Shown here: one piece after another, positions 8,206 to 54,803 of the stretch
Numbering within the stretch: position 1 is the stretch's first letter
How the letters are laid out: each line of letters opens with the position of its first letter
From: Candidatus Methanophagales archaeon
GTDB lineage: Archaea; Halobacteriota; Syntropharchaeia; Alkanophagales; Methanospirareceae
Direction of reading: 5' to 3'
Length of the DNA stretch: 64,000 nt
Assembly (NCBI GenBank): GCA_003336485.1
Contig: QENH01000200.1
Location: 7,510 to 71,509, forward strand
Notes under the pieces: generated by a model
What the model was told of the DNA's origin: nothing
What the model saw: only the letters and a program-made list of their open reading frames with translations
The model's database searches: none
Position numbers and translations under genes: made by a program

Positions 8206-8270
8206 TTTTATTATTTCTTTTGGTAAAGCTTTTCTTTCTAAGAAAAGGTTTCCATTAAGTTAAAGAAGAC

Positions 8271-15876: not shown

Positions 15877-16107
15877 TTGTACGCAATGTTTTGGCTGCAC
15901 AATGAGATTTTTTTATATATATATCAAGCCAAAATGTTCTAGCAAGCAGGTAGCGGCATTTTCCACTTGAAGAGTAAAAAACCCCTATCGTACCCATTTT
16001 ATGAGTCCCTAACACCTATGAATATGACATATTCACCCAACCTATGTCTTTTTATGCAGATATGATGAATAGAACAAATGCAAAAGTATGATGTGGAAAA
16101 GATAAAA

Positions 16108-19100: not shown

Positions 19101-20616
19101 AGGCGAGAACTTCGCCACGATACAAGCTGCGATTGATGATCCTGATACCGTGAATTGGCATACGATTACGGCTGATCCGGGAACGTATACGGAGAATGTA
19201 GTTGTTTACAAGTCTTTAACTATTCGCTCGACCACAGGAAATCCATCAGATACGATTGTTCAGGCGGCGGATTCCTATGATCATGTCGTTAATGTGACTG
19301 CGGATTCTGTGACTATAAGCGGGTTTACGGTGTCGGGGGCACCAAGTTGGGATAGTGCAGGGATATATCTTGGAAGCGGAGTGGATCTTTGCACCATCTC
19401 TGATAATAATATAACTGACAATGGGAGGGGCATCTATCTGGATCATTCTAGCCACAACACTCTCTCTAACAATAATGCCCTGAAGAACTTTTGGTGTGGC
19501 ATCTATCTAGATTATTCCAGCAACAACAAGCTCCTCAACAATACTATCTTTCGAGGCGATTATGGCATCTATCTGGATTATTCCAGCAACAACTTCCTCT
19601 ATAACAATACTGTCGATTGGAGCGGTATGGAAGGCATAATTATGTCACATTGCAGCAACAATTCGCTCTTTAACAATAATGCCTGGGGTGTCAATGGTCC
19701 AGGCATCCATCTATCTTCTTCCAGCAACAACAACAATCTCTCAAACAATAATGCCTGGCATAACCTTGATGGTATCATTCTGTCACATTGCAGCAACAAC
19801 TCGCTCTTTAACAATAACGCCTGGTATAACGAGTATGGCATAGGTCTATATCATACCAACAACAACACTCTCTCAAACATTAATGCATCGCATAACGACT
19901 TTGGCATCTATCTGTATCATTGCAGCAGCAACTCGCTCTTTAACAATAACGCCTTTAACAACTATTTTGGCATCGAGCTGTCACATTCCAGCAACAACTC
20001 TATCTCAAACATTAATACATCGAACAACGATTTCTTTGGCATCTATCTATCTGATTCCGACAACAACTGTCTCTATAACAATATTGTCTTGAAGAATGAT
20101 GAGCATGGCATCCACCTCTCTTCTTCAGATAGCAACCTCATCTACAACAACATTTTCAACAACACGAACAACGCCTATGATGATGGAAGCAACATCTGGA
20201 ACAGCACAAACACCACGGGACCGAACATCATTGGTGGACCTTATATTGGCGGTAACTATTGGTCTGATTATGCAGGTATTGATTCGAATCATGATGGTTT
20301 TGGCGATACGCCTTATAATATACCGCCAGGCGGCATTAGCAAAGATTATTTACCGCTGGTTCCTGTTGAACCATCACCATGTTTCATAGCAACAGCAGCA
20401 TATGGTACGCCATTGCACGATGATATAGACGTTTTGAGAGATTTCCGAGACGAATATCTGATGATGAATCCAACAGGGAGAACATTTGTAAAAGTTTATT
20501 ATACATTGAGTCCACCGGTTGCGGATTTGATAAGGGGAAATGAAGGACTGGGAACTGCTGTACGGGAGGGTTTTGTTAAACCCTTAGTGTATGTTACGAG
20601 GATGTTTGTAGGCTGA
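16108..20616 (+). CDS. Giant secreted beta-helix repeat surface protein, paralog 3 (three tandem NosD-like modules)
   Basis: The same signal peptide is followed by three ~420-aa modules, each starting [22 protein letters not shown] and ending ...[13 protein letters not shown], then the C-terminal CFIATAAYG domain. The ORF-track start at 16078 is an upstream in-frame ATG. Confidence 0.8.
16576..20345 (+). repeat. Three tandem ~1.25 kb coding modules inside paralog 3. They start near 16576, 17824 and 19087, with a period of about 1248-1263 bp.
   Basis: Read directly from the sequence. Module ends are about 95% identical at nucleotide level (for example 17650-17822 vs 18900-19083), while interiors differ in PbH1 repeat content. 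Confidence 0.85.
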
Positions 20617-20636
20617 GCGGGGATATTTTATTCCAT

Positions 20637-21221
20637 TTATGTGAAAAACTTCTCGTTCAGAATCTCAATCGCATCCTTCTCTCTACGCCCGCCGCATTTT
20701 TCGACTATGTCCGCATAATGTACCATCTCTTTTTTTAGCTCTTCCTGTTCTCGTTCATCCCTGGTCATTTTATACCGCGTTGCGAGTATAGTAGCTTCAA
20801 TCACCGCATTAAGCCCCCTATTTATCGCTTTTAGCTCATTCCAATTGATTTTCACTGCTATGGGCGTCAATTGAAAGATGGAATATACACCGCTCTTCTC
20901 TTCTAAAACCGCCCGGAATATTATCCCCGATTGCGCTTCTTTTAGTACCGGAAATCCGGAAAGAGCTGAATAATGCGATTTGTCCAACTTCTCAAATGCC
21001 GCTTTCACGAATAAGACCGCGTCACAGGTTACATTCGCGGCTAATTTGTCCGTTTCCGTCACGTTAGAAAGGGTTCTTGAACCTTTGTATAGTTTCACAA
21101 AATGCCCGTTTGTTGTTGTTATTATACCAATAGGGGCAGCATTGAACGTGCCCACAGCGGATCTCGAGGTAACTATTACTTCTGATATGCCCTCGTCTAT
21201 GCCAGCTTCTCTTATGTTCAT
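20637..21221 (-). CDS. DUF447-like protein (predicted flavin-binding split barrel)
   Basis: 194 aa. It resembles methanogen DUF447 proteins, but the family assignment comes from memory and is not computed. Confidence 0.4.
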   Translation of the reverse strand: MNIREAGIDEGISEVIVTSRSAVGTFNAAPIGIITTTNGHFVKLYKGSRTLSNVTETDKLAANVTCDAVLFVKAAFEKLDKSHYSALSGFPVLKEAQSGIIFRAVLEEKSGVYSIFQLTPIAVKINWNELKAINRGLNAVIEATILATRYKMTRDEREQEELKKEMVHYADIVEKCGGRREKDAIEILNEKFFT

Positions 21222-25146: not shown

Positions 25147-25872
25147 ATGACGACATGGACTGAATTGAAGTTTGGAGGCAGGACTTTTTCCCCGGAAGTG
25201 CGGAAATTGGGCGATATGAAGGAAGTCGTATTAGACAAGCGCTTTTTAGCGTGTGCGGACATGGATATGGCGCTGTATTTCATGTTCAGGGAAGTATCAA
25301 AGAATGAAGAGGACGAGAAGCGGATAAAAGAAAGAGAGCTGAGATACGACATCACTATTATCCCCCCGAATACGCTCGGCGCGGAATTTGTTAAAACCGC
25401 GGGACACTATCATCCCCTTATACCGGGTTCACAAATGACATATCCCGAGATGTACGAGGTATTAGAAGGCGAAGCACATTATCTTTTACAGTGCAGAGAT
25501 GAAGATGGCGGTACCGAGAAGATAACAGATGTAGTTGTGGTAAAGGCGAAAAAAGGCGATACTGTTATAATACCGCCCAATTACGGGCATGTTACGATAA
25601 ACCCATCTGAAGCGACGTTAAAAATGGCTAACTGGGTTGCAAGGGCTTTCTCTTCGATCTACGAGCCGATACGAGTAAAAGGCGGTGCCGCGTACTTCGA
25701 GCTGACCAACGGCGAGTTTATTAAGAACGAAAAATATGGGGCCGTGCCTGATATTAGGTTCCTTAAGCCTGAGGCGACAGGGATAAAGCAAATAAAGCTG
25801 AACAAAGAAGTGACAATGTACGAACTACTTCGAGAGCCCGAAAAGTTGCAGTTCCTTATATCACACATTTGA
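25147..25872 (+). CDS. Cupin-type glucose-6-phosphate isomerase (cPGI)
   Basis: Signature motifs TIIPPNTLGAEFVKTAGHYH (TxxPxxxGxExxxTxGHxH) and PPNYGHVTIN (PPxxxHxxxN). The 241-aa length fits archaeal cPGIs. Confidence 0.6.
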   Translation: MTTWTELKFGGRTFSPEVRKLGDMKEVVLDKRFLACADMDMALYFMFREVSKNEEDEKRIKERELRYDITIIPPNTLGAEFVKTAGHYHPLIPGSQMTYPEMYEVLEGEAHYLLQCRDEDGGTEKITDVVVVKAKKGDTVIIPPNYGHVTINPSEATLKMANWVARAFSSIYEPIRVKGGAAYFELTNGEFIKNEKYGAVPDIRFLKPEATGIKQIKLNKEVTMYELLREPEKLQFLISHI

Positions 25873-26025
25873 AACTTCCGGATATTTTTATTGGACTCTT
25901 CACCATTCTCGCCTCCTTCTATAGTCGGTCTACAAAGGATTTTGATAGATAGAATATTCAAGAGATGTAATTAATACTAATGTCAGAAAGCGAATATAAG
26001 AAGGCGAGAAGCGAAGTGATTAATA

Positions 26026-26844
26026 ATGACGCTAAGAGATTATTTAAAGGATTCTGAGATGAAAGGTGTTGAACTACAAAGGAATCCGTATCTCATCAGT
26101 GCTTTCTATTTGATCCTGATAACAATTGCAGAGTGGGTAACAAATTATCATCCTAAATTTGGGATTGCATCACACGTTTTCATCATGATCCTACTGTTTT
26201 GTCATTTCGCTCTGGTATCAGACAAAGATGATAATTTAGCACATTATCTTATTGCTCTTCTTCTCGCCCCGCTTATACGTATACTGAGCTTATGTCTACC
26301 ATATATACAGTTCAGTTGGATCTTTAGCTTCACGCTCGTGTCAATACCACTATTCATAGCGATCTTTACCTGCATGTGGCTGCAAGGGCTACACGGAGCG
26401 GATGTTGGGTTTTCGTCACCCAAGTTGAAGTACCTGCCACTAGAAGCAGGAATAATTCTTTTTGCCGTAGCTCTGGGAATAGCGGAATATATGATTTTAA
26501 GACCCAACCCATTGCCGGCGTCAGGAACATTGAATTTAATCATCGCATCACTACTTTTAATAATATGCACGGGCTTTTTAGAGGAGCTGATCTTCAGGGG
26601 TTTGCTACAATATAATGCAGTAAGAGTGATGAGTAAATGGCGTGGTATCTTTATTGTATCCGCTATTTTCGGCGTGCTTCACCTTGGAAATATATCCCCG
26701 TGGCATTTAGATTGCTTCTTTGCTGGCGCTGTTGGGTTTCTGTTTGCCGTAGTGCGCGATAAAACAGGATCAATACACGGTATAAGCTTCGCGCACGGCA
26801 TTATAAACATAGTTCTGTTTTTAATCGCACCGCTTTATTTTTGA
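26026..26844 (+). CDS. CPBP family intramembrane glutamic endopeptidase (CAAX protease / Abi)
   Basis: Multi-TM protein with the FLEELIFRGLL motif (EExxxR) and the FGVLH motif. Confidence 0.7.
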   Translation: MTLRDYLKDSEMKGVELQRNPYLISAFYLILITIAEWVTNYHPKFGIASHVFIMILLFCHFALVSDKDDNLAHYLIALLLAPLIRILSLCLPYIQFSWIFSFTLVSIPLFIAIFTCMWLQGLHGADVGFSSPKLKYLPLEAGIILFAVALGIAEYMILRPNPLPASGTLNLIIASLLLIICTGFLEELIFRGLLQYNAVRVMSKWRGIFIVSAIFGVLHLGNISPWHLDCFFAGAVGFLFAVVRDKTGSIHGISFAHGIINIVLFLIAPLYF

Positions 26845-26901
26845 TCGTCTGTATTTTTCTTTTGAGTTCAAAACACAGATTATCGCCTTTAGCCCTTACC
26901 C

Positions 26902-27774
26902 CTACCTCTTTTTCAACCGGTTACTTATAGAAGGATAGAAGATAAATGCCAGAGGCACGAGGAATAGCATGACGATTGCCACTTTGCCTGTGGCCGAGCC
27001 AGAAGAGAAGAGGGTAAGAAGAATAGGGTCTTCCTTTTGTACCTCAAAGAGGTAGGGGACGGTATCGCCCATGAACTCCTTTGTTCTATTGAGAATGCCA
27101 TCGTAAGAGCCGTTACGCGATGCGAGAGCTGAGATACGGACCATAGTAACGGTATTTGACGCGAAAGTTTCCTTCACGTAGAAATAAAGCACGACCCTTC
27201 GCTCTGTTACCTTCCCTTCTTCCTTTGATTCCTTCGTGACAATGAGCTTCTTTGCTGCTATCGTCTCATTAAAGACTAAACCATGTTCTCTTTCATACTC
27301 TTCCGACCGCCAAAATCCGGCTGCCCAACTTACATTATGCACCGGCACCTCTGCTATGCCTTCCTCTTTTATCGTATAGCCCAACGCGGGATAGCAAACA
27401 ATAGGCGGATGGAAGCTAGAGCGGTTATTTGATTGCATGATGAGAAAGAATACCGGCTGGTAATATTTCGGATGCGAGTATGCACGCATGAGCATTACGT
27501 CCGCGTTCAAGCGTTCTGCAAGACCTGTCGTGTTGTACTCATAGGCAGTCCAATTCCCTAGCTGCTCTGGGAACTTCTGTAGGTGCTCGTTGTTTCCGAA
27601 GTCCATCTTTGTTCGAACAGGCGTGGCATCGTCAGAAGCATACGAGAGCTCGGTATCTATCGTGGTGATCGTTCTGGCGAGTATCATAGACGGTGTTGAA
27701 AAGACGATGATAATAACGAAAACGAGCAAAAGGAGCCCTATGACCCGTGAATATTCTTCAAAGAAACTCCTCAT
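26902..27774 (-). CDS. Archaeosortase-associated protein, possible EpsI analogue
   Basis: 290 aa with an N-terminal TM, a large extracytoplasmic domain and a C-terminal TM. Its start is a 4-nt ATGA overlap with the stop of the archaeosortase gene, in the same gene order as bacterial epsH-epsI. Confidence 0.4.
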   Translation of the reverse strand: MRSFFEEYSRVIGLLLLVFVIIIVFSTPSMILARTITTIDTELSYASDDATPVRTKMDFGNNEHLQKFPEQLGNWTAYEYNTTGLAERLNADVMLMRAYSHPKYYQPVFFLIMQSNNRSSFHPPIVCYPALGYTIKEEGIAEVPVHNVSWAAGFWRSEEYEREHGLVFNETIAAKKLIVTKESKEEGKVTERRVVLYFYVKETFASNTVTMVRISALASRNGSYDGILNRTKEFMGDTVPYLFEVQKEDPILLTLFSSGSATGKVAIVMLFLVPLAFIFYPSISNRLKKR

Positions 27775-28628
27775 TTCGTTCTCCCCGTAACTTTACACCC
27801 AAAGAGACTACTTATTAGTATCAAGAATATAAGCGCGATGATGAATAGCAGGGGGCTGAAAAGGGTATGGTAAAATCCTGTTGCCGTCTCCGCGCCATAT
27901 GCGTTTGCAATTAGTAGTAGAGATGTAACCCGGATGATATTGGCGAGGATTGCAAGAGGGGGCGTTATACAGAGCAAGATGATCTTCTTATACAACGGGC
28001 ACCGTAAAATGTAGATGAATAGCGTTGCTATTGCCAATAGCGAGATGAGCGAATTCATGCCGCTGCATGGCAAACCGATAATGAAAGCGGCATCTTCAAG
28101 CCGAATCTCCGCCCCTATCCGTGTAACGGGAATACCAAGCATTTCGAGAATTAATGCAGGGAAATATGCAGACAGAGTTTGTAGTGCGTTTGCGACTTTT
28201 CCCAGGAACTCTGGTGGCAATGGGATAGCGAAGATAAGATAGGCGATTGGAAATATGAGAGTGCGCATCAGAGGTTTACCATAGAAATAAAGGATCAAAC
28301 CGCTTGTTGTGAATAAGAATGATAGCGCGGATAAGAAAGGGAAGAGCTTGATAATGCCGATGATATAAAGGATAAGGCCAAAGGCGAAGACGTAGATTCC
28401 TGGTTTACAGGGTTCCTGATTGTCTCCCGGCTCGCTCTTCTTATAGTCTCTGACATTCCACCACGCGATAACGCATGATATAATTAGGATCAAGAACCCA
28501 TGTGTGTAGCACGGATCGGTCCGCCAGAAACTGGCTAACCATATCGGTATAAAGTTGGAAAAAGGCGATGGGAAATATAAAATGACTAAGAGCAGCAAGA
28601 TAAAAATAGTGGTCTTCTTCATCTTCAT
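27771..28628 (-). CDS. Archaeosortase (exosortase/archaeosortase family transpeptidase)
   Basis: 285 aa, polytopic. It carries the family catalytic motif PCSGMNSL (Cys), a conserved Arg in NIIRVTSLL, and an N-terminal lysine-rich stretch followed by a TM. Confidence 0.7.
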   Translation of the reverse strand: MKMKKTTIFILLLLVILYFPSPFSNFIPIWLASFWRTDPCYTHGFLILIISCVIAWWNVRDYKKSEPGDNQEPCKPGIYVFAFGLILYIIGIIKLFPFLSALSFLFTTSGLILYFYGKPLMRTLIFPIAYLIFAIPLPPEFLGKVANALQTLSAYFPALILEMLGIPVTRIGAEIRLEDAAFIIGLPCSGMNSLISLLAIATLFIYILRCPLYKKIILLCITPPLAILANIIRVTSLLLIANAYGAETATGFYHTLFSPLLFIIALIFLILISSLFGCKVTGRTK

Positions 28629-28661
28629 ATACTTCTCTTTATACTAAGTTCTTAATATTTA

Positions 28662-29030
28662 TTATTTGAGTATCGCGTTGTACTCATAAGTGAACTCCAT
28701 TGTGACAAGCTGGAAACGATAATTAACGCTATATCTTCTCTCGGTCTTCGCCGGAAATACCATCTCGTTCTGAGCACCATCTTCGTTCCACCTTATTGAT
28801 ACCACAATATCGCCGGAATTATTCAGCGTCACAATATGACTACCAACAATGCTTGCATGCCATAAATCCACATGTATCTCAAAATCGGTCACCTCACAGC
28901 CGAGATCGTTTATCTGTATCGCATGTTTTTCGTTCTCGTTACCCATTAATCCAAATGCAGATGCCGAGTTAAGAGAAGCCGCAAGAAGTAATGCTATAAC
29001 AACGCCAAATAAGAGATCTCGCCTTCCCAT
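28662..29030 (-). CDS. Small secreted protein
   Basis: Signal peptide MGRRDLLFGVVIALLLAASLNSASA, 122 aa. It lies 34 nt upstream of the archaeosortase gene on the same strand. Confidence 0.45.
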   Translation of the reverse strand: MGRRDLLFGVVIALLLAASLNSASAFGLMGNENEKHAIQINDLGCEVTDFEIHVDLWHASIVGSHIVTLNNSGDIVVSIRWNEDGAQNEMVFPAKTERRYSVNYRFQLVTMEFTYEYNAILK

Positions 29031-30076: not shown

Positions 30077-30107
30077 GGTCTGAAAACTACGAGTTTAGTT
30101 TCTTTGT

Positions 30108-30644
30108 TTATCTAGCATTTTTACTCACACGCTCAACAGCCACCTTTATCATCGCCACTATGCCCTTCTCGTTCCATCGCGAGGAATCGATTACCAGATC
30201 ATAAATGGTAAGATCGTCCAAGAGTATACCGTAATATTGCTCATATCGCTTATGTTCGGACCGTTCTCGGTCTCTCATTGCAGAAAGAGCATCAATGTAG
30301 GCGACACCTTCGCGACTACCAATTCGTCTCGCTCTTATTTCCGAGGGTGCTTTCAACCATATCTTCAAATCTGCTTTGGGGACAAAGAATCCGGCCAGTC
30401 GGCTTTCTATAATGACATTGTCACGCTTCATCGCCTCCTTGCCCTGCAGCTCATCTATCTGCCTATCGAACTCATCGTTATCTTCTGCTAATTTGTTAAA
30501 ATGCGCCAATTGCAATTTCTTAGCATTCGCTATTTGCCGGAACATTTCGCCCGCAGAGATTAGCTCCATCTCAAATTCACGCGATAGCAAATTCGCAACT
30601 GTTGTTGTTCCACTGCCTGGAAGACCGCTTATTGTTAGTCGCAT
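30108..30644 (-). CDS. cmk: Archaeal cytidylate kinase
   Basis: P-loop ISGLPGSGTTTVANLL. The 178-aa length is typical of archaeal Cmk. Confidence 0.75.
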   Translation of the reverse strand: MRLTISGLPGSGTTTVANLLSREFEMELISAGEMFRQIANAKKLQLAHFNKLAEDNDEFDRQIDELQGKEAMKRDNVIIESRLAGFFVPKADLKIWLKAPSEIRARRIGSREGVAYIDALSAMRDRERSEHKRYEQYYGILLDDLTIYDLVIDSSRWNEKGIVAMIKVAVERVSKNAR

Positions 30645-30700
30645 AAAACATTCTTTAAAAGAAAGTTTTATTAAAGGAATAGTTTTTCAATAATTTTTGG

Positions 30701-30812
30701 TAATCGGACGCAGATGAACGCAGATAATCAGGATTTTAAATATAAGGTTTAATTGACGGAGGAGATTATTAGAATCATTGAGGAACTAGTTTTCTGCGTA
30801 AATCCGCGTCCT
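30701..30812. repeat. Intergenic element with inverted termini, ~110 nt, copy 1. Copy 2 is at 49547-49660.
   Basis: The shared core is AATCGGACGCAGATAAT...GATTTT(A/T)AAT...GACGGAGGAGATTATTAGA. In copy 1 the termini GGACGCAG and CTGCGT..GCGTCC are reverse complements. Confidence 0.5.
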
Positions 30813-30896
30813 AAATAGGTGGAAGTTATACTTCATATATGCACTGCTCGGCGCTCTCCGCGGTGATAAAACAGTATATTTTTAGACTGTGTTGGT

Positions 30897-32405
30897 TTAT
30901 CCTTTTATAACACCAATGGCTCTGAAAGCCGCTACTTTCTTCGCTATACCTGATACTTCACAACTTTGAACTACCACTTCCGGGTCTTTATAGGCTGCGG
31001 AAACTTCTTCCGCCAGCTCGCCATATTTGTCAAATTGGATACCTCTCTTCTTCCTCACATCTCGCTTTGTTCGTTCTCGTGTCTTCACTATTATATTCCG
31101 TTTCGCTAATTCCGCTTTCACTTCACTACCTCGGTATTGCCTCATTGCCGCTGTCCTGCTCATTTCTCTACCAGAGCCATGAGCACAACTTCCAAAAGTC
31201 TCATCTCTTGCTACGTTTGTGCCCACCGCCAAGAAACTGCGTGTGCCCATAGAGCCGGGAATTAACACCGGCTGGCCAACGTTTCTATAGATCGGTGGTA
31301 ATCGTTCGTCACCTGCGGGGAACGCCCGTGTCGCACCTTTTCGATGCACACACAACTTCTTACGCTTCCCGTCCACCACATGCTCTTCCTCTTTCGCTAT
31401 GTTATGTGCAATGTCGTACACCAGCCGAACTTCCATATCTTCCGCTTTTCTTCGTAGCACGTCTTCAAATACTTTTCTTGTCCAGTGGGTTGCGAGTTGC
31501 CTATTCGCAAAAGCGTAATTCGCACATGCGCACATCGAAACGAAATAATCCATACCCGTGTCACTGTTCAAATAAGCGCAAGCCAGTTCACGTTCTAAGC
31601 CGAGTATCTTTGATAACGTTGCATCCTTGTTCATCTCGCGTTCGAAATTCCGCAGATAGTAAGAGCAAACGCCGTGTGATAAGCCCCTGCCACCGGTATG
31701 GATCAAAACAGTTACCTGCCCCACCTCTTCTATTCCATACGCATTTGCAAGTTGCTCATCAAAGATCTCATCCACTACCTGCACCTCTAAAAAGTGATTC
31801 CCCGAACCGAGCGTACCTAACTGTGGCGAGCCCCGCTTCTTTGATTTCTCGTCTATCTTATCTATACTTGCTGCTTTTAATCTACCGCCCTCTTCTGTGC
31901 GCTCTATATCCTCTGGCCAGCCATAACCATTTTCAATGCACCATTTGGAACCACCCAATAGCACATCATCTAACTGACTATGCGACAACTTCACTTTCCC
32001 GGATAGTCCCAGCCCCGCGGGGATATAGTCAAATAAGCTGTCCAATATCTCGGACAAATGAGGCCTCACGTCACCCTCCTTCAGATTGGTGCGCATAAGC
32101 CTAACGCCACAGTTTATGTCGTATCCAACGCCACCGGGGGAAATGACACCGTCCTCGAAATCCGTAGCTGCAACGCCGCCTATCGGGAAGCCATAACCCT
32201 GGTGCCCATCGGGCATAACCAGAGAGTATTTCTCTATGCCTGGGAGCGAAGCGATATTGATTGTTTGTTGTAGCGTCAGGTCGCTTTTCAGCTTTTCCAA
32301 AAGCGCTTCTGCCGCATATACCCTTGCCGGCACTCGCATGTACTCTTTATATGATTGGGGTACTTCCCATACATCGTCCCTTATCTTTTTAAGCGGAATT
32401 GCCAT
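30897..32405 (-). CDS. rtcB: RNA-splicing ligase RtcB
   Basis: 502 aa with motifs GSGNHFLEV, the C-terminal HGSGR-type block (CAHGSGREMSR) and contiguous homology with no intein. Confidence 0.9.
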   Translation of the reverse strand: MAIPLKKIRDDVWEVPQSYKEYMRVPARVYAAEALLEKLKSDLTLQQTINIASLPGIEKYSLVMPDGHQGYGFPIGGVAATDFEDGVISPGGVGYDINCGVRLMRTNLKEGDVRPHLSEILDSLFDYIPAGLGLSGKVKLSHSQLDDVLLGGSKWCIENGYGWPEDIERTEEGGRLKAASIDKIDEKSKKRGSPQLGTLGSGNHFLEVQVVDEIFDEQLANAYGIEEVGQVTVLIHTGGRGLSHGVCSYYLRNFEREMNKDATLSKILGLERELACAYLNSDTGMDYFVSMCACANYAFANRQLATHWTRKVFEDVLRRKAEDMEVRLVYDIAHNIAKEEEHVVDGKRKKLCVHRKGATRAFPAGDERLPPIYRNVGQPVLIPGSMGTRSFLAVGTNVARDETFGSCAHGSGREMSRTAAMRQYRGSEVKAELAKRNIIVKTRERTKRDVRKKRGIQFDKYGELAEEVSAAYKDPEVVVQSCEVSGIAKKVAAFRAIGVIKG

Positions 32406-32980: not shown

Positions 32981-34381
32981 ATGACCGAAGAAAGAGAGAA
33001 AGTAGGAGTATTAGTTATTTCTTATGGCTCACGAGCGGCTGCGCTAATAGATGCACTGAGCAGAAGTGCGAGTTATGACGCGCGTTTGTTTGTTGCGGAC
33101 AAGCAAAGGAACCCGTTTAACGTGTCACATGCCGAGAAGCACGTGGTCATCCCAGATCTGGATGTGGAGAAGATATGTGAGTTCGTGGAGGCGAATAAAA
33201 GCAGCATAGATTTCGGGATTTGCGGCCCAGAGAAGCCAATAATTGCCGGTGTTCGGGATCTGGTAGAGCATAAGACAGGAGTGCCAATGATATGTCCGAC
33301 GAAGAGATATGCAATAGAAGGAAGCAAAGCATCGCAACGGTATCTGATTGAGGATTGTTGTGCAGAGGCGAATCCTAAATTCAAAGTCTTTCATCATGCG
33401 GATTATAAGAGCGTAAGTGAAGTGAAAGATGCGGTATGGGCATTTTTAGACGAGTTTGGCGATGAAGTGGCAGTGAAGCCAGATAAGCCCGCTGCGGGTA
33501 AGGGCGTGGGGGTCTGGGGCGACCACTTCACCTGTCGGGAGCACCTTTTCACACATTTCCGATCCATTTTTGAGAGTGGTAGTGACGTGATATTAGAGGA
33601 GCGAGTAGAGGGCGAAGAATCGAGCTTTCAGGCGTTCTGTGATGGTAAAAGGCTCCTCGCTCTACCGGACACAAGGGATTATAAACGCGCTTTCGATTCC
33701 GATTTGGGCCCAAATACGGGTGGTATGGGCGCTTATAAGGACACTACCGATTGGCTGCCGTTTATGGATGAACGTGATCGTGAAGAGGAGGTGCTTTTGG
33801 TTCAGAAGATATTCAACAAATTGAGGGGTAACGGAAGCAATGACGAGCTTAGGGGTATACCGCTTTATGTCGCTTTTATGCATACTCGAGACGGTGCGAA
33901 GATACTAGAGATAAACAGTCGACCGGGCGACCCCGAAATAATGGGTTTATTGCCGGTTTTGGAGAACGATTTTGTGGATCTCTGCTTTCGTATGATAGAA
34001 GGGACTCTTTCACGGCTCGAATGTGCGAATAAAGCAACAGTGGTGACGTATGCAGTGCCGATGGATTATGGCGGTTACCGTAAAAAAGATAGCGGCGATA
34101 AAAGGGTGGATTTGAGTGCGGCCTATGCGTTGCAGGATACTTATGGTGATCATTTGCGGGTCTATCCCGGGTCTATGGAGTTACGTGCAGATGGAAATAC
34201 ATACGCGCTTGGATCACGAACTGTTTGCACCGTGGGCGTTGGTGAGACGATGGAAGATGCGAGGGAACTATCGCTGGAAGGGATTAGGAATATAGATGGT
34301 GCGTTGTGGAACCGGTGGGACGTGGGAGCTGCACATTACATAGAGCGGAACATAAAGAAGATGCGGGAGTTGCGTGGATAA
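32981..34381 (+). CDS. ATP-grasp enzyme of the phosphoribosylamine--glycine ligase (PurD) family, divergent
   Basis: The N-terminus VLVISYGSRAAALIDAL parallels PurD VLVVGSGGREHA. Other matches are GPEKPIIAGVRD and the ATP-grasp segment VAVKPDKPAAGKGVGVW. At 466 aa it is longer than canonical PurD. Confidence 0.5.
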   Translation: MTEEREKVGVLVISYGSRAAALIDALSRSASYDARLFVADKQRNPFNVSHAEKHVVIPDLDVEKICEFVEANKSSIDFGICGPEKPIIAGVRDLVEHKTGVPMICPTKRYAIEGSKASQRYLIEDCCAEANPKFKVFHHADYKSVSEVKDAVWAFLDEFGDEVAVKPDKPAAGKGVGVWGDHFTCREHLFTHFRSIFESGSDVILEERVEGEESSFQAFCDGKRLLALPDTRDYKRAFDSDLGPNTGGMGAYKDTTDWLPFMDERDREEEVLLVQKIFNKLRGNGSNDELRGIPLYVAFMHTRDGAKILEINSRPGDPEIMGLLPVLENDFVDLCFRMIEGTLSRLECANKATVVTYAVPMDYGGYRKKDSGDKRVDLSAAYALQDTYGDHLRVYPGSMELRADGNTYALGSRTVCTVGVGETMEDARELSLEGIRNIDGALWNRWDVGAAHYIERNIKKMRELRG

Positions 34382-34422
34382 TAAACAAAAACAAAGATAC
34401 TAAATAACTAAAGAGTGCTGAA

Positions 34423-35148
34423 ATGTGGTACTTTTACATTATAATCGGTTTACTTGTCTTTTTTGCTTTTACCGTAAGAGTTATTACCGGTTTTGGTTCT
34501 GCAATGATTTTAACACCGGTTTTATCACTCTTTTTAGGCCCGAAGAACGCGGTTATCATTAGTATACTCATGGAAAGTGTAATGGCGGTGGTTTTTATAG
34601 TAAAAGAGAAGCTTAATTTCGAGATAAGGCAGATTTTTAGCGGCGGTATAGTGGGAATAATTGTAGGCATAATATTGTTTGGGTTATTACCGACACGAAT
34701 ATTGGGGTTGATTATAGGAATAAGTGTTCTTACGTTTTCCGTCATCTTTCTCCTGAATATAAACTTCCGAACGAAAAGGGAGGGGCTGCTATTTACCGTT
34801 CTTGGGTTAATAAGTGGTTCTATGGGTGTCTTGACGGGAATAAATGGGCCACCAATCGTTTTTGGTTTGGTAAATCAGCAATATGATGCAACATTCATAA
34901 GAAGATGCTTGATTACTTATTTAATTGTGATAGATATTATTACTTTGGCTTCATTTTCGATTTCCGGGTATGTAACGGTTGATCTAGTTCTACTTCTGAT
35001 TTATTCCATTCCTTTCATTCTTATCGCTTATGTGGTTGGGAAATATATATTGACTTTCACAGATCCGGAGAAGTTGAAACGAATTATTCTCTTTACTACT
35101 CTTTTCGTGGGAATCATTGCAATTTGGAAGTTCTTACCGTGGTGGTAG
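34423..35148 (+). CDS. TauE/SafE family sulfite/anion exporter membrane protein
   Basis: 241 aa. It has two repeated halves with the G-rich TM motifs typical of TauE/SafE (GFGSAMILTPVL...). Confidence 0.65.
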   Translation: MWYFYIIIGLLVFFAFTVRVITGFGSAMILTPVLSLFLGPKNAVIISILMESVMAVVFIVKEKLNFEIRQIFSGGIVGIIVGIILFGLLPTRILGLIIGISVLTFSVIFLLNINFRTKREGLLFTVLGLISGSMGVLTGINGPPIVFGLVNQQYDATFIRRCLITYLIVIDIITLASFSISGYVTVDLVLLLIYSIPFILIAYVVGKYILTFTDPEKLKRIILFTTLFVGIIAIWKFLPWW

Positions 35149-35276
35149 GTGCGTTTCTTTAGATTCTTCAGAAAAGCGAATCTACCCCTGCCAAAATCAT
35201 TTATCGCATTCTTTGAAACCGCAATAACAGCCTTTCCTATACGAATTTATATTGATACTCCGTATTTACTAAGTGT

Positions 35277-35816
35277 ATGAAGATCGCATGGGGGATTACA
35301 GGTGCAGGAGACCACATGACCGAATGTGTGACTTTTATGAGGCTGCTTAGCAAGAAGTACAACTTAGATGTTCATGTCTATCCCTCAAAAGAGGGCGTTG
35401 TAGTTTTGAAGTACTATAATCTCTTAAAAGAAGTTAAAGATAATTTCTCAAAGCTGAGCCCCGAAAAAGGGCCAAACGCACCGTTCATAGCAGGGAAAAT
35501 AGCGTTAGGCACTTACGAATTCTTTTTAATCGCACCCGCTACTGCAAATACAGTGGCAAAGATGGCATATGGTATTGCGGATTCGCTTATTACTAATTCT
35601 GCTGCACAGGCCATGAAGGCGAACGTGCCGGTGTATATCTTCCCCGTAGACCAGAAAGAGGGCGAAATAATGACTACGCTACCTGATGGTAGGGCTTTAA
35701 AGTTAAGAATTCGGAAAGAGGATGCCGATAATGTAGAGACGTTACGGGGGATGCGTGGCATCAATGTTTTAAGCCGGGTACATGAGGTAAAAGATGTGGT
35801 GGAGCAGCATAGCTGA
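35277..35816 (+). CDS. Flavoprotein (archaeoflavoprotein AfpA / CoaC-like flavin-binding fold)
   Basis: The N-terminus KIAWGITGAGD matches the flavoprotein family (PF02441-like), and a PATANT-like segment (APATANTVAKMAYGIAD) follows. Confidence 0.6.
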   Translation: MKIAWGITGAGDHMTECVTFMRLLSKKYNLDVHVYPSKEGVVVLKYYNLLKEVKDNFSKLSPEKGPNAPFIAGKIALGTYEFFLIAPATANTVAKMAYGIADSLITNSAAQAMKANVPVYIFPVDQKEGEIMTTLPDGRALKLRIRKEDADNVETLRGMRGINVLSRVHEVKDVVEQHS

Positions 35817-35872
35817 TTAGTCTATGGAGACCACAGTTAGTTGCCGACTCCGAGAATCTATTTGATCTTTTA

Positions 35873-36274
35873 TTATTGCGCTTTGGTTCTCACGCCATAT
35901 TTGGCATACATGTAAAGCGCTATCTCAAGGGTAACATGTAAATCTCTCTCCTCGAGCGGTTTGAGTACATAGCCATAAGGCTCTGTTATCTTTGCTCGTT
36001 GTACTGTCTCGTCATCCGCATAAGCAGTGAGATATACGACAGGGATTTTGAAGCGAGTGCGAATCTGATCTGCTGCTTCTATACCGTCCATGCCATCTTT
36101 CAGCACAATATCCATCAATACTAAATCAGGCTTCATCTCTCCTGCCTTTCCTATAGCTTCTTCTCCTGTAGATGCTATCGCAGGTACCGTGTATCCCCAA
36201 GTCACCAACAGATCTTTTAGATCCTTTGCAAAAAGGACCTCATCCTCAACAATCATTATATTTGCTTCTGCCAT
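35873..36274 (-). CDS. Stand-alone response regulator receiver (CheY-like) domain protein
   Basis: 133 aa with an acidic pocket (IMIVEDE), the phospho-acceptor DLVLMDIVL and the K-containing YVLKP. Confidence 0.8.
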   Translation of the reverse strand: MAEANIMIVEDEVLFAKDLKDLLVTWGYTVPAIASTGEEAIGKAGEMKPDLVLMDIVLKDGMDGIEAADQIRTRFKIPVVYLTAYADDETVQRAKITEPYGYVLKPLEERDLHVTLEIALYMYAKYGVRTKAQ

Positions 36275-36388
36275 TTTTTTATCCCCCCTTTATTTTAGCT
36301 TGGTATTATAACGCTAACTTTCTATTCTATTGTGTAGCATAGTATATAAAACTACCCTACTTAAAATTTGTATATTGAAAACATCGTA

Positions 36389-36568
36389 TTACTCTTCCTT
36401 ATTTTTCCCAGTTTCAATCTCCTTCTTTATCGCCGCTGCTATTTCCGGATCGTCTTCTTCTATTATGAAAACACCCCGATAACCACAATCCCGGCATTCA
36501 TATATCTCGCCAAGCCAGGGCTCATAGTTCAACTCCTCAGAGCCACATTTCGGACAGATTTTCATCTT
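36389..36568 (-). CDS. Small zinc-ribbon protein (59 aa), absent from the ORF track
   Basis: Own translation: MKICPKCGSEELNYEPWLGEIYECRDCGYRGVFIIEEDDPEIAAAIKKEIETGKNKEE. It has two CxxC pairs, and its ATG directly abuts the tpiA stop on the same strand. Confidence 0.5.
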   Translation of the reverse strand, partial: KMKICPKCGSEELNYEPWLGEIYECRDCGYRGVFIIEEDDPEIAAAIKKEIETGKNKEE

Positions 36569-38519: not shown

Positions 38520-38940
38520 CGAGATATACGAGAAGGGCAATTGTCGCCTGAAGACATGGGGTAATCATGTTAAAAATATCAAAATGATCCACCAGCAGAT
38601 ACTCGCAATATTTTTAAAATCTCTCGGTAATTCTTTTCTCGCCCCACCCGGAACAAAACCCTGATAAAATCGCGGTAATCGGTGATGAATCTTGCCCTGA
38701 TTAAGATATTCGTCACTTCTTCCTCTTCTTTTCCGCTTATCCTAAATCATATCTCCTTTATATTCTCTTAATACTCTCGTTGTTATTTGATAGCCCCATG
38801 AACACAATAATCGCAAACATAGCCATTATAACCACTATCTTCACACCGCTATTTTTTCTTCTTATCCCTCTACTTCTAACCACGATGCAATCGCTTTTAG
38901 TGAATCAAGTGCAGTTTTAGATCGCTAAAATCTAATAATA

Positions 38941-39357
38941 TTGATGTTCTCGTTCTCAAGCGCGAAACCGAGTTCGATAAAAGATGGACGTGTGGAAGGC
39001 GATATTCAAAACTTCCTCAGACGATGTAAGGAGCATCCGATTTATACCTTTTCCTGTTTGATGCTTCTAATCTTGCTTTTTTGGGTAATTGGTTATTATA
39101 GCTGGGATTTGTTGTGGAATGTTTGTGCATTCGTCACAATGCTACCGATCCTTTCGGTATTTGCATTGATATTGAATATTTTCTTTGTTGAGTTTGTGCA
39201 TCGGCTCGATAATACGCTGAAAATGTACAAAATTCTGCCCATCGTAGCTTTTTGGGGGCGTTATTTCCTGACTGCACAATTTACCGCTAATCAATATCTG
39301 ATTAATGGTGTGAGTGTAGGGCTATTAGAGGGGGTGTTAAAGGTTGTTTCTAAATAA
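38941..39357 (+). CDS. Hypothetical membrane protein
   Basis: 138 aa with two or three hydrophobic helices and no recognisable motif. Confidence 0.3.
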   Translation: MMFSFSSAKPSSIKDGRVEGDIQNFLRRCKEHPIYTFSCLMLLILLFWVIGYYSWDLLWNVCAFVTMLPILSVFALILNIFFVEFVHRLDNTLKMYKILPIVAFWGRYFLTAQFTANQYLINGVSVGLLEGVLKVVSK

Positions 39358-39366
39358 AATGTAGGA

Positions 39367-40503
39367 CTACCTTTTTCGTCCTACCAGATATGCTACTGCT
39401 AATAGCCCTGCAATAGCGAATACCATTTCAAACCCTATTGTTTCCCTTGGACTAGGTGTGGCCATTGTCCTGGTTGTCGCAGGTGTAGAAATTAGATCCA
39501 CTTTAACAGGAAGCATTATGCTTTTATATTCCGCAGTTGACTTATCTCCTCCAAAATAATAACAAATATCGCTCTCAACATTGAACACACCAACTTGATT
39601 CGTTTTTATGCCCACCCCGATATGTCTTTCCTTTCCCGGTTCTACGGTATAATTAGCTGTATACATACCTGCTCCAGATTCTATAAATTCTATGGATGTA
39701 ATGCTCATTCCTGATGGGACTTTTAGTATCAGTTGCAAAGTCATCGTTGGCTTTGTTATTAGATTGACCGCAGAAAGAGATAATAGAATATCTTCTCCAA
39801 CAGTGACATCTGTCTTTTCTCCATGGAGATAAACACTTGGTTCTCCGGGTTTGGGAGTTGGTGGCGGGGTCTCAGTTGGTGTTTCTGTTGGCATAGAAGT
39901 GTATGTTGATGCCTGTGTGGACGTAGTTATTGTTGGAGTTGGTATGTAGGAGGGGGTAGGTGTTATAAATGGCGTGGGACTCGGTGCTTGTAAGTGGAAA
40001 GGAGTAATAGTAGGTAAATGTTTTGGTGAAGGAGTTATAGCAGGAGTTGGACTTGGTGAAGGTGTTGGTGAAAGTATTGGTGAAGGTGTTATGGTAGGAG
40101 TTGGACTTAGTGTGGGTGTTGGTGAAGGTGTTGGCGAAGGTGTTGGCGAAGGTGTCAATACCTTATAACTCACGGAGATAGTTTTTGTAGCGGTATCACC
40201 AGCATTATCAGTTGCTTCCACTTTTATTATATTGGTGTTGGGGTTTAACGAAATGGTTTTACTCCAGAAAGATGTGCCTGATGCAAGCTCTCCGTTGACC
40301 AGGACACCCTCAATTACTGCTCCCGGAGAAGTGGGGAATGCTGTACCAGAAACCGTTATGGTACCCGTAATCACTTCTGCCTCATCTTCAGGTGTAGCTA
40401 TTTCCAACAAAGGAGCACTTGCAAGCACGGATGTCAAAGAATATATAAGTAAGAAAATGCTGATAGGTACTATAATGAAACCCCTCAAACCTATCCTTTT
40501 CAT
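39367..40503 (-). CDS. PGF-CTERM-anchored surface protein with a Pro/Thr/Ser-rich linker
   Basis: - Start placed at [19 protein letters not shown] (signal/TM).
- Long TPSPTPSP linker.
- C-terminal [23 protein letters not shown], a PGF-CTERM archaeosortase A sorting signal. Confidence 0.7.
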
Positions 40504-40513
40504 GCCAACCTCT

Positions 40514-42811
40514 TTACTGTTCCAATCTAACAATTGGTATCCAAGTATTATAAACTATTATGCTTAGATATGTTTCGGGACCCGTATCAAATTCACTTTC
40601 TGTTGCAACAATAGTAACTTCCCTTGGCTTTGCGATATTTCCTTCTTCATCATTGGCATGTATTATAAAAGTATATCTACCCTCCTTCTTCGGAACAAAG
40701 CTCACCATATACCTATTTCCTACCTCTTCTTTTAACTCCAATGTGGTCAAGTTTATTTCATACATTGTATCATTGCTTATCTGGTCTATGGCAAAATCAG
40801 GTTCAATCAGGGTTACATATACACGCTCTACCTTCAAATCATCTACTACTACCGCCCATATCTCTATTTCTTCACCCACCATCACAGTCTGATTATCAAT
40901 TGAATCTAAGATAGTTGGAGGGAAATCAAGGGCTCCGAATTGGGATCCTATGTATGTTGACGATGACAAAGAGCCATCTCCAGGATATACTGGTGCGGGA
41001 TGCCCAATTCCATCACCATTGTCATCCAACAACGAAATTTGAGGCGATAATCCTACTTTATCGAGCGTATCAGAATATGCTTTTATCTCAGGCACATTTG
41101 ATGTTTCTTCAAAAGCTTCTTTTATGTTCTTCCCTTTTGCTATCGAGTTGAAGAAATATTTTGAGAATGTAGCGCCTGTTTGCTCTATCAACGAATTCGC
41201 TTTTGCGCCCGTTGATGTTACAATTATCCTGCCAGCCGTTGAAAGATTACAAATGAAACTGCCAGAACTACACGATTCTATCACCACCGTTATCTTATAG
41301 CATCCCGTATCAGCGGACAATTCATCCAGATTAGAATCCAACTCCGAAGAACTCAATGTCTCTCCAAGTCCTTTTAACAGAAGCATATCTTCTTTTCCAT
41401 GACCTATTATGTAAATGAACAATGGGACCTCGGTGCCTACTTTCCCCTCTGCCCATGTGTTTATCGCATACGAAATATTTTCCTTTGATGTTTGCATGTC
41501 TACTCTCTCAAAGTTCATGGGACTGAGATAAAATAGCCTTTCATCAGTGAAGCCGCGCTTCAAGAGTGTGTCATAAGTCATGTTTGCTGTCAGGTCAATG
41601 TAATTCTGCGATAGCCATTCGTCGTTTCTGCCAACGATTATAATTGCATATCCTACTTCAATACGGTATTGTTTTACGGTAAAACACATAGTTTCGCTCT
41701 TTATCGCTTTCCCTCCGATAACACAAGAGGCATTTACGTTCCATTCTCCGACCTCATTTGGCGGAAAAGTAATGGCGTAGGAGCCGCTTAATGTGGTCAT
41801 TACAGGCTGCTCTGCAATTTCACCTGTGGGCGATTTGAATATCATGGTTACTATTGTGCTGGATGCAGGAACTATTTCTCCAGAAACCGTTACGCTTTCT
41901 GATCTGTTCAACATAGCAGGACTTACTGAGATTGTGATATGTGTTGGTGGGGTTGGAGTGGGAGTTGGATATTCGTAAGTTGTGGGGGATGCAACAGGTG
42001 TTGGCGTTTGCTGAGCTGAGGGTGAAGGCGTTAATGTTTGAGAAGGTGAAGGTTCTGGAGTGGGAACCGCTCCTCTTGCCTCCTTCTTATCCACTATAAA
42101 ACCAAAAGCAATACCGCTACCATCAGTTTCGAGCTTAATCTTTAACGTGTCCCCAGTGAACCATTCCGTCCACATATCCGCTTCACTTAAAGGGCCCCAA
42201 CTGTATCCATATGTTGCAAGTTCATTCTTGTCTATATCGAGTATCCGCACATAATCATCTTCCAAGAGTTCTATCTTGGTAAAATGAATCCTCATTTCAG
42301 CTACTCCCGGTTCCGAGATGGTCCAGATGTTTTCATAGTTGTTTGCATACGGATGATAGGTTTCTGCTAAATATGAGGATGTTGGTGCTGATTCTGTCCG
42401 CCTTTCCACTTCATCCACTATAAAACCAAAAGCAATACCGCTACCATCAGTTTCGAGCTTAATCTTTAACGTGTCCCCAGTGAACCATTCCGTCCACATA
42501 TCCGCTTCACTTAAAGGGCCCCAACTGTATCCATATGTTGCAAGTTCATTCTTGTCTATATCGAGTATCCGCACATAATCATCTTCCAAGAGTTCTATCT
42601 TGGTAAAATGAATCCTCATTTCAGCTACTCCCGGTTCCGAGATGGTCCAGATGTTTTCATAGTTGTTTGCATACGGATGATAGGATTCTGCTAAATACGA
42701 AGCTGAAACAGTTTGGATTCCGAGTGGGAAGATTCCGATTGACAAGACACATATCAAAAGGATACTACCTAAAAATATGCCGAGCTTCATGATTTTGCCC
42801 TTTCTCTTCAT
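40514..42811 (-). CDS. Secreted legumain/C13-like cysteine peptidase with two tandem CUB-like domains
   Basis: - Signal peptide.
- Two ~130-aa near-identical CUB-like domains ([18 protein letters not shown]...YVRILD...).
- Peptidase core with His in IIGHG and Cys in VIESCSSG, the C13/caspase-like dyad arrangement. Confidence 0.55.
42091..42694 (-). repeat. Near-perfect tandem duplication of the CUB-like domain coding segment (2 copies of ~324 bp)
   Basis: Read directly from the sequence: 42091-42370 and 42415-42694 are nearly identical. Confidence 0.85.
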
Positions 42812-42870
42812 GCTCTCTTCACACCATATAATAAAAAAAGTGAGGCTATTTTTTTTTTCGCCTCACAAGA
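42812..42870 (-). terminator. Hairpin plus oligo-T terminator-like structure after the stop of the PGF-CTERM gene at 42846-43538
   Basis: On the minus strand the sequence is GTGAGGC-GAAAAAAAAAATA-GCCTCAC followed by TTTTTTTT, and the hairpin spans the stop codon. Archaeal termination typically occurs at oligo-T tracts. Confidence 0.5.
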
Positions 42871-43538: not shown

Positions 43539-43669
43539 TACGTTTCATCTCCTTTTCATAACCTACTTTCATGGATAGATTTACAAATAAACTTGGGTAT
43601 GATAAATGAATAGCCATCGGGAAAAAAAATCATATTCTTAAAATAGCTAGTGCGGGCTGCTTAAATCAA

Positions 43670-43766
43670 TCATTTCTTTCGTCCTACGAAATATGCTATG
43701 GCTAATAGCTCAGCGATAGCAAATATTACTTCAAATCTCGGCGATTTTTGGTAATAGGGGTGCTAA
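43670..43766 (-). pseudogene. Orphan remnant of a PGF-CTERM gene 3' end
   Basis: Own translation of the minus strand: ...HPYYQKSPRFEVIFAIAELLAIAYFVGRKK*. There is no start codon, and an in-frame stop lies immediately upstream. Confidence 0.5.
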
Positions 43767-43831
43767 AAATGTACAACTTAAAAATAGCACAATACTGTAT
43801 CTCTTCCATTTTTGCTTTTTGACCATAACGG

Positions 43832-49493: not shown

Positions 49494-49546
49494 TTCCTTT
49501 TATTCTATTTCTCTTTGATTGCTTATATTTGATTTTTTGTATTTGA

Positions 49547-49660
49547 TAATCGGACGCAGATAATATGATTTTTAATATTTTTGATGGTTTATTAGACGGA
49601 GGAGATTATTAGACTCTTCTATCATCTCGTGGAAATCTGTGTAATCTCGTGGCGTATAAA
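49547..49660. repeat. Intergenic element, copy 2 (see 30701-30812)
   Basis: It shares the core AATCGGACGCAGATAAT...GACGGAGGAGATTATTAGA with copy 1. Confidence 0.5.
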
Positions 49661-49730
49661 AAAGGAGCTAAACAAATACAAGTTAAAGTATAAATATTAA
49701 TCACTGGCTAATGTGGGAGAGCGAAAGAAG

Positions 49731-54771: not shown

Positions 54772-54803
54772 AAAAAAACCTTTCTTTCAAAAAGAAAGCT
54801 TTA

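Follow-up and report, generated by a model that had tools for sequence, protein, structure and literature searches.

Two intergenic repeats of a Candidatus Methanophagales genome as ORF-less relics of a small inverted-repeat cassette with a predicted nuclease gene

The described systems that come closest to the element reported here are free-standing homing-endonuclease genes, miniature transposable elements with inverted repeats (MITEs), repetitive extragenic palindromic (REP) doublets (REPINs) with their REP-associated tyrosine transposases (RAYT), and the intervening sequences (IVS) of 23S ribosomal RNA (rRNA). Free-standing homing-endonuclease genes occur between conserved genes of T4-like phages; as in our case, a small nuclease-like open reading frame (ORF) sits co-oriented in the spacer of conserved genes, and alleles with and without it exist. 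MITEs are small non-coding sequences, intergenic and multi-copy, that have inverted arms and arose when a longer coding element lost internal sequence but not its ends. In REPIN/RAYT systems, a few coding copies are flanked by short palindromic units that are also dispersed as many non-coding copies, presumably served in trans, and the unit sequence co-varies with the protein subfamily. The IVS are selfish elements of ~0.4-0.5 kb, horizontally transferred, with one small, decay-prone ORF between inverted repeats, which form a stem once transcribed; the one of Coxiella burnetii has 428 nt, carries an S23p ORF and is excised by RNase III (PMC4990558). Here we analysed 64,000 nt of a Candidatus Methanophagales archaeon (contig QENH01000200.1, positions 7,510 to 71,509 of the forward strand; hereafter the window), in which two intergenic repeats of ~150 bp behave like MITEs, and their parent element recalls the other systems in part. 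We conclude firmly that the two loci are inert, ORF-less relics of a small selfish cassette. Taken as a whole, it is highly probable that they descend from an inverted-repeat cassette with a nuclease ORF that multiplied in anaerobic methanotrophic archaea of group 1 (ANME-1) and is shared with bacteria. The protein family concerned, GxxExxY, has been listed as "unknown, multiple transfers" (PMC3424549), and full-text searches of a literature library on GxxExxY, PDDEXK_3, TIGR04256/PF13366 and ANME-1 MITEs turned up no description of such an element, nor of a function or mobility of the family.

The initial annotation of this DNA had pointed to a repeated intergenic element in two copies, one between cmk and rtcB and the other between cofG and prs, and both the repeat and its gene context proved right. 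The exact 19-mer GACGGAGGAGATTATTAGA is present twice in the window (30755-30773 and 49595-49613), with 0.03 occurrences expected and none of 100 shuffles reaching two; a left block, TAATCGGACGCAGAT, is also common to both copies, and its count compared with the shuffles behaves like that of the 19-mer. Copy 1 lies between a cytidylate-kinase-like gene (30108-30644) and rtcB (30897-32405), both on the minus strand, and is antisense to the two of them. Copy 2 is flanked by prs (49731-50588, plus strand) and, on its other side, by a radical-SAM gene (48501-49493, minus strand) that fits cofG. For the protein of the cytidylate-kinase-like gene, an exact database look-up gave no record. The loci had been correctly placed, but the elements are longer than first proposed, covering 153 bp (30688-30840) and 141 bp (49542-49682) of the plus strand. 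No further copy of any block was found elsewhere in the 64 kb, either by block searches or by alignment to the reference element. A degenerate third copy suspected at ~38660 was rejected: it has only the 9-mer GGTAATCGG in common with the others, 47 of 300 shuffles align as well or better, and none of the window searches recovered it, so that we regard it as a chance match.

Relatives were collected by scanning 185,579 species-representative genomes for the exact 19-mer, this 5' sequence being the only one required. The scan returned 48 loci, ~45 of them in Methanophagales/ANME-1-type metagenome-assembled genomes (MAGs), with up to 9 per MAG (9 in GLR107 and 7 in binchicken_co116_93). The genome-wide search that had been proposed as a check therefore did find further copies. 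Three of the loci are syntenic with the window (91-93% identity), which identifies its DNA as that of an ANME-1 archaeon. In long copies, the 19-mer continues into a GxxExxY reading frame (...TEEIIRIFYRVYNKLGYGFLEKVYENAMM...). The full-length ANME-1 element has 494 bp (L014), with an arm-to-arm core of ~445 bp laid out as GGACGCAGAT(GA)ACGCAGAT ... TCTGCGTAAATCTGCGTCC. Its parts follow each other as a left extension (CAAGAAAGAATAATTTTTGATAATC), a left arm with a single 10-nt unit or two of them (GGACGCAGAT-GAACGCAGAT), an ORF of 396 nt, a right arm whose inverted units number two or three (TCTGCGTAAA-TCTGCGTAAA-TCTGCGTCC) and a right extension (TAAATAGGTAGAAGTTATACTTTATATACAA). Each arm consists of one to three 10-bp units, which read ACGCAGAT-NN in the left array and have the complement in the inverted array on the right, with the start codon inside the left arm and the stop codon 4 nt before the right arm.

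The only gene of the cassette encodes a 131-aa GxxExxY/PDDEXK_3 protein with a predicted PD-(D/E)XK nuclease fold. The intact ORF (L014/L026) matches PF13366 PDDEXK_3 in Pfam (E=4e-41, 140.4 bits, cut-off 22) as well as TIGR04256 GxxExxY (E=4e-39, 133.7 bits, cut-off 35). The family motif reads G31-F-L-E34-K-V-Y37, and D73, E83 and K85, which form the D...(D/E)xK catalytic core of the predicted nuclease, are invariant across 27 homologues. Database homologues have 131 aa and begin with MNADNQDFKYKELTEE, and the N-terminus in intact relatives reads MNADNQDFKYKELTEEII...; therefore, the start codon is the ATG inside GGACGCAG-ATG-AACGCAGAT. In L014, one of the two full-length copies, ATA stands in place of this ATG (2087-2110), and the protein recorded for it in the database (P0001, 145 aa) uses as its start another ATG, upstream in the host flank, from which it reads through the left extension and the arm. 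Searches against other libraries gave only a faint match to the Cas4b core in the PADLOC defence library (E=0.006) and no match for the parent protein in the PHROGs phage library; no solved structure was found by sequence or profile search, and an AlphaFold model built from 27 close homologues was poor (predicted local distance difference test, pLDDT, of 53).

Most ANME-1 copies have lost this gene. The full-length frame is kept in only 2 of the copies found by the 19-mer, and in nearly all copies the two ends fall at r40-43 and r533-545 (r, reference coordinate), with internal deletions that vary from one to the other (r151->449, r152->482, r147->471, r211->412, r239->438, r133->484 and others). 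The junction r151->449 is found at non-orthologous loci in four MAGs, with no obvious microhomology. Besides the family described so far (family 1), ANME-1 harbours at least three sister families with the arm units ACACAGAT, CACAAGAT and CGCAGAG, of which the ACACAGAT family has the same outer extensions as family 1, and elements of one family are found nested precisely inside the arms of another. The outer units scarcely differ among family-1 copies, so that covariation within this family is uninformative, there being no compensatory changes to count; it is visible only between subfamilies. The extensions carry a T5 run on the left and a TATA-like sequence on the right, and judging from these motifs they may supply termination and promoter signals in the archaeal host. 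Neighbouring genes are often co-oriented with the element (downstream gene in 24/33, upstream gene in 28/41), which is suggestive only, as these counts come from crude ORF calls with orthologous loci not removed. A different idea, that the extensions are a general terminator-promoter module of the host, was rejected for this genome, in whose window both are absent except at copy 1.

Read against this reference, copy 1 is an internal-deletion mini that kept both arms, made of r50-133 joined to r484-530. It begins with a truncated ANME-1-specific left extension, CAATAATTTTTGGTAATC (30688..30705, plus strand, as are the other parts of both copies and the adjoining arm; BLAST to the 494-bp reference starts at r50), which is without the first ~9 nt of the canonical one and joins the host DNA at ...TTTTTCAATA; L064 has the flank up to TTTTTCAATA without the element. 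Then comes the left arm with its two 10-nt units, GGACGCAGAT-GAACGCAGAT (30706..30725), containing at 30714-30716 the same cassette ATG that starts the 131-aa proteins P0002 and P0009. The 5' coding remnant (30714..30776, within the part that aligns to r50-133) translates as MNADNQDFKYKV*LTEEIIRI, with an in-frame TAA at codon 13. The deletion junction at 30776/30777 removes ~350 bp (r134-483), and what follows is a remnant of the 3' end of the ORF, ATTGAGGAACTAG (30777..30789; the canonical TTTGAGGAAATAG codes ..NLRK*), the right arm TTTTCTGCGTAAATCCGCGTCC with two inverted units (30790..30811) and the ANME-1-specific right extension TAAATAGGTGGAAGTTATACTTCATATAT (30812..30840), whose canonical form is given above. 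The inverted, stem-forming arms that had been proposed for this copy, GGACGCAGATGAACGCAGAT at 30706-30725 and TTTTCTGCGTAAATCCGCGTCC at 30790-30811, are real and pair in the minimum-energy fold, whose energy is far better than that of shuffles on both strands (z = -3.8 and -4.1). A 10-nt internal duplication had also been ascribed to copy 1; it is present, but copy 1 is not the odd one, as the duplication is the second left-arm unit, which carries the start codon, and a two-unit left arm is found in nearly all of the ~45 related copies. Directly abutting copy 1, 30841..30891 hold the right arm of a third related family (...CTCGGCGCTCTCCGCGGTGATAAAA...), one of those that nest with family 1, for which no matching left arm was found in the window. 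The same sequence (...CTCGGCGCTCTCCGCGGTGATAAAACAGTATATTTTTAGAC...) brackets a full-length family-1 element in L026 and is also found in L006 and L066.

Copy 2, which has the one-unit variant of the left arm, is by the same alignment a chimera of the left half of a family-1 element and the right arm of a sister family. Its left part (49542..49623, r57-141) holds the arm GGACGCAGAT at 49552-49561, after it N-terminal codons that have diverged, then the 19-mer at 49595-49613 and finally CTCTTCTATC, the canonical ATG and the reading frame being lost. It is joined to ATCTCGTGGAAATCTGTGTAATCTCGTGGCG..., the right arm of the sister "CAC" family, whose arm and tail, ATCTCGTGGAAATCTGTGTAATCTCGTGGCGTATAAAAAAGGAGCTAAACAAATACAAG, occupy 49624..49682. 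The join falls at the position where L025 has a whole CAC-family mini nested in a family-1 copy (L065 was also compared). The matching right arm of family 1 is absent, and copy 2 folds no better than shuffles (z about 0). No intact GxxExxY gene exists in the window, in which tblastn matches were limited to fragments of 10-11 residues, and the relics at the two sites probably have no function of their own today.

The window elements can be described as MITE-like, and the suggestion that they are non-autonomous mobile elements was right in substance, as they are ORF-less deletion derivatives with presence and absence among relatives. In several respects they depart, or may depart, from MITEs. 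The parent has no DDE, HUH, serine or tyrosine enzyme, only the 131-aa protein with the predicted PD-(D/E)XK fold; no target-site duplication was seen here in pairs diverged by 8-26%; and the arms are arrays of a 10-bp unit rather than simple terminal repeats, copy 2 being without a matching second arm. Moreover, the 20-nt arms of copy 1 are subterminal in ANME-1, where a conserved extension of 18-29 nt lies outside them.

We also looked at the cassette outside of the archaea. Close homologues of the protein (81-87% aa identity) are encoded on contigs of Desulfobacteraceae, Syntrophobacter and other Desulfobacterota-type bacteria, where the cassettes sit between ordinary bacterial genes. Alignment of the bacterial DNA with the ANME reference extends from r64/67 to r508, that is, arm to arm, with 85-90% identity and 0 gaps, and the similarity stops at the arm boundaries. 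The GC content of the cassette is 32-35%, compared with 39-49% for the flanks in bacteria and ~44% in ANME-1. Between the ANME copies and L053, the synonymous divergence (dS) is 0.21-0.25 and the ratio of nonsynonymous to synonymous divergence (dN/dS) is 0.08-0.4; intact copies are therefore under purifying selection. These alignments show a cassette that is foreign in base composition, nearly unchanged between the two domains, bounded by its arms, multi-copy and variably present. That it moved recently between Desulfobacterota-type bacteria and ANME-1 belongs to the explanation that we hold to be very likely overall. Among viral contigs, the 19-mer had 0 matches, and the arm 20-mer matched only high-GC contigs, as ORF-less hairpins and not as the cassette. 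Near-perfect hairpins of ACGCAGAT units were seen in the high-GC IMG/VR contigs L083 (870-960), L084 (2930-3060 and 4060-4090), L081 and L082, for example CCGCAGATGGACGCAGATGAACGCAGAT...ATCTGCGTCCATCTGCGTTCATCTGCGG; arrays of this unit are therefore found also without the ORF, and in phage-like DNA.

To see how far the design extends, eight distant homologues (30-58% identity) from plasmids and chromids of seven phyla or classes were inspected. Where neighbours were annotated, the gene was co-oriented in a tight spacer: between radA and the gene of an FAD-dependent protein, between ade and a mannose-1-phosphate guanylyltransferase gene, or between fabD and fabG. In 4 of the 8, inverted arrays stood on both sides of the ORF, with 9-11-nt units whose sequence was a different one each time (z 4.5-14.2 compared with shuffles), the left arms being TTCACCACAGAGGACGCAGAGGACACGGAG in Bacteroides (z 12.7), TCTTTTTTCACGCGAAGGCGCGAGGACGCGA in Sphingomonas (z 14.2), AACACAGAGATAAGGAGAACCACAGAGA in Bernardetia (z 9.1) and ACACGGATTCG in Treponema (z 4.5). 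In a fifth, Gemmatirosa, a three-unit ACGCGGAT hairpin lies just downstream of the ORF. The arms therefore co-vary between subfamilies, while the iterated-unit design is constant. The unit sequences known are ACGCAGAT, CACAGAG, ACGCGAAG and ACACGGAT, each with its complement on the opposite arm, and the association of such arrays with a nuclease ORF appears to be a general, so far undescribed property of the GxxExxY family.

Filled and empty sites gave a further view of the element. In Sphingomonas, the fabD-fabG junction of one species is filled by an exact arm-to-arm unit and that of a sister species is a plain spacer of 30 nt. Among the rtcB-cmk junctions of the metagenome set L064-L076, those of six more distant ANME-1-related lineages have no spacer, the rtcB stop abutting or overlapping the cmk start; in the clade of the window, the two genes are split by a spacer of 100-250 nt with its own promoter-like sequence, and the element content of this spacer differs in each of L064, L065, L066, L025 and the window. 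The window itself has an empty family-1 site at 36374..36389, with 15 unrelated nt (TTGAAAACATCGTAT) in place of a ~270-bp copy present in MAG172 (L031) and of its orthologue in GLR107 (L042). L042 is also without 2 kb matching window 34381-36391. Left flanks often end in a stop codon and a few A/T bases, with no convincing target motif.

Several observations weigh against our interpretation. The only filled/empty pair in ANME is not a clean insertion, as 15 nt differ, and no target-site duplication was recognised in the flank survey or in the filled/empty pairs, whose divergence of 8-26% could hide short ones. The cassette has no gene for any known type of recombinase or transposase, and a nuclease alone cannot do strand transfer. 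In family 1, the middle unit of the right arm varies freely, without a left partner, and the ANME-specific extensions, although external to the arms, are copied along with the element, which a simple model with the arms as ends leaves unexplained. Identical junctions at different loci could come from gene conversion rather than from the spread of minis. Three internal states exist at the orthologous locus L036/L040/L044, and therefore gene conversion, besides mini spread, may produce shared junctions. Finally, the cross-domain comparison draws on MAG and metagenome contigs, whose neighbour genes look bacterial or archaeal as expected.

In ANME-1 the cassette has multiplied and decays mostly by internal deletion, with both ends spared and MITE-like minis as the outcome; how it moves we infer from the same comparisons. 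The 10-bp units could be binding or cleavage sites of the cassette's own nuclease. A periodicity of 10 bp puts successive sites on one face of the helix and is how sites bound by proteins are usually arrayed; considered with the co-variation of unit and subfamily, it points to the PD-(D/E)XK protein as the one that may act on the arms. The few intact copies might supply this nuclease in trans to the many minis, as is presumed for REPINs and RAYT. The analogy with REPIN/RAYT concerns the layout only: the cassette protein is of the PD-(D/E)XK type and not an HUH Y1 enzyme, matching only PDDEXK_3/GxxExxY, the arms are iterated 10-bp arrays, and the coding cassette is itself multi-copy and crosses domains. 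The difference from homing-endonuclease genes is that near-identical copies at dozens of unrelated sites per genome are not explicable by one enzyme with a long recognition site; inverted arms and non-coding minis are also not among the features of such genes. In the host transcript, the arms may also pair as a long stem around the ORF, possibly insulating the host operon, which could explain why insertions in operon spacers are tolerated.

A broader proposal, which we put forward tentatively and judge somewhat less likely to hold than to fail, is that GxxExxY genes with their flanking inverted 9-11-bp arrays form a widespread, so far undescribed class of very small mobile elements. They would encode nothing but a PD-(D/E)XK nuclease able to recognise the arms around its own gene, their insertions would lie in operon spacers, and the class would cross the boundary between bacteria and archaea. 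The non-coding minis would be served in trans, as the nuclease-based counterpart of RAYT/REPIN, and ANME-1 would represent a recent invasion followed by a burst, possibly from the bacteria it lives with.

Among the other explanations, the one that fares best, although we still consider it rather unlikely, is a cassette acting at the RNA level in the manner of the 23S IVS, whose stem would be cut by a double-strand RNase or would shield cistrons; this is compatible with the cassette origin preferred here. The iterated units would then matter only as stem length, and movement would go through host recombination. In its favour, predicted minimum-energy folds pair both arms across ~400 nt in 6/6 full cassettes, the arms co-vary between subfamilies, the cassettes are co-oriented in operons with the downstream ribosome-binding site intact (fabD-fabG, hemB-ahbD-like), and the Coxiella IVS, a 428-nt selfish element with an ORF that RNase III excises by way of its stem, provides a precedent (PMC4990558). 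A stem, however, needs no 10-nt periodicity, yet an iteration of 9-11 nt recurs in every subfamily, and the arms have unequal numbers of units (2 left versus 3 right) with a middle right unit free to vary. Most archaea are not known to possess RNase III. In the window, both neighbours of copy 1 run antisense to it, and the sharp arm-to-arm edge of the cross-domain identity needs an event at the DNA level. The cassette also differs from the IVS by its position in spacers of protein-coding operons and not in 23S rRNA helices, all copies examined having protein-coding genes on either side and no rRNA match having been found in the window, and by an ORF of the GxxExxY/PDDEXK_3 type and not the S23p four-helix bundle.

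We also asked whether these loci could simply be paralogous GxxExxY genes, duplicated by general recombination and now decaying, with flanks that are the promoter and terminator of the gene. Such a reading agrees with the fact that most copies are pseudogenes, that no transposase is encoded and no target-site duplication recognised, and that several loci are ancient and common to several MAGs. It is nevertheless improbable, considering that the 85-90% DNA identity between archaea and bacteria ends exactly at the arms and that the GC content is foreign in both hosts. Also against it are the dozens of single insertions scattered over short spacers that separate unrelated genes, the deletions that spare both ends even though the search needed only the 5' 19-mer, and the precise nesting of elements between the arms of other families, and the ancestral rtcB-cmk and fabD-fabG junctions are empty.

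The initial annotation had also offered a small structured non-coding RNA (ncRNA) with its own archaeal TATA promoter, the arms forming the closing stem. Copy 1 does fold well on both strands and contains a TTTAAATA-like sequence, but the signals are codons of the conserved ORF: the "TATA-like box" GATTTTAAATAT codes D-F-K-Y and "GGAGGAG" codes T-E-E, both near the N-terminus of the 131-aa protein. GATTTTAAATAT is equally conserved in the bacterial cassettes, where an archaeal TATA box has no meaning, and the bacterial copies have ACCGAGAAG at the place of the window's ACGGAGGAG; neither feature is therefore a promoter or a ribosome-binding signal. Copy 2 has no stem, and arbitrary deletions change the content between the arms from copy to copy, the opposite of a conserved RNA core. 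In Rfam 15, the whole window gave no match at the gathering score except a tRNA elsewhere, copy 1 gave nothing at E<=1, and the full-length L014 element gave only a chance match to mir-2. An ncRNA gene is thus very improbable, and this part of the proposal did not stand. Least credible of all is a promoter or regulatory fragment common to the host genes. Both copies do adjoin gene starts, those of the minus-strand genes cmk and cofG and of the plus-strand gene prs, and the canonical right extension has at other loci a TATA-like sequence just upstream of downstream genes. The conserved blocks, however, are cassette coding sequence and arms, the promoter-like region of cmk is external to the element and occurs in L064, where the element is absent, and no functional theme is common to the two window contexts.

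Other features of the window were recorded along the way. A palindromic motif, TTTGGTAAAGCTTTTCTTTCTAAGAAAAGGTTT, occurs at 8214-8251 (plus strand), 46334-46371 (minus) and 54776-54808 (minus), with a related sequence at 30645-30680 upstream of cmk; it lies ~5-45 nt upstream of candidate start codons of unrelated genes and is an internal part of CAC-family minis in L025 and L042, and could be a promoter or operator module carried by these minis. A segment of 5.2 kb (38573-43838) is absent from L031 and has short tandem repeats of the GGTGAAGGTGTT type and a 293-nt duplicate at 42089-42705, and another of 2.8 kb (25870-28662) is absent from L025, which has in turn an extra 1.47 kb between the htpX-like gene and cmk (window 30097-30107). 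The regions 11500-20650 and 62100-63700 contain a cluster of large paralogous genes made of tandem repeats of 66-72 nt (22-24 codons), with up to 38 repeat copies and long duplicated blocks; their products may be repeat-rich surface or adhesin-type proteins.

The parent cassette is of more interest than the two dead relics, whose own interest is modest. In annotating ANME-1 genomes, it is now possible to mask as relics of the cassette many intergenic "repeats", apparent promoter motifs and tiny bogus ORFs (..FCVNPRP.., ..LRKSAS..), and the cassette helps to explain remodelled intergenic regions such as the broken rtcB-cmk junction. It also marks DNA recently exchanged between Desulfobacterota-type bacteria and ANME-1. 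The GxxExxY/PDDEXK_3 family is large, and the co-varying arms, the ~90% arm-to-arm identity between archaea and bacteria and the minis provide it with a testable hypothesis of function.

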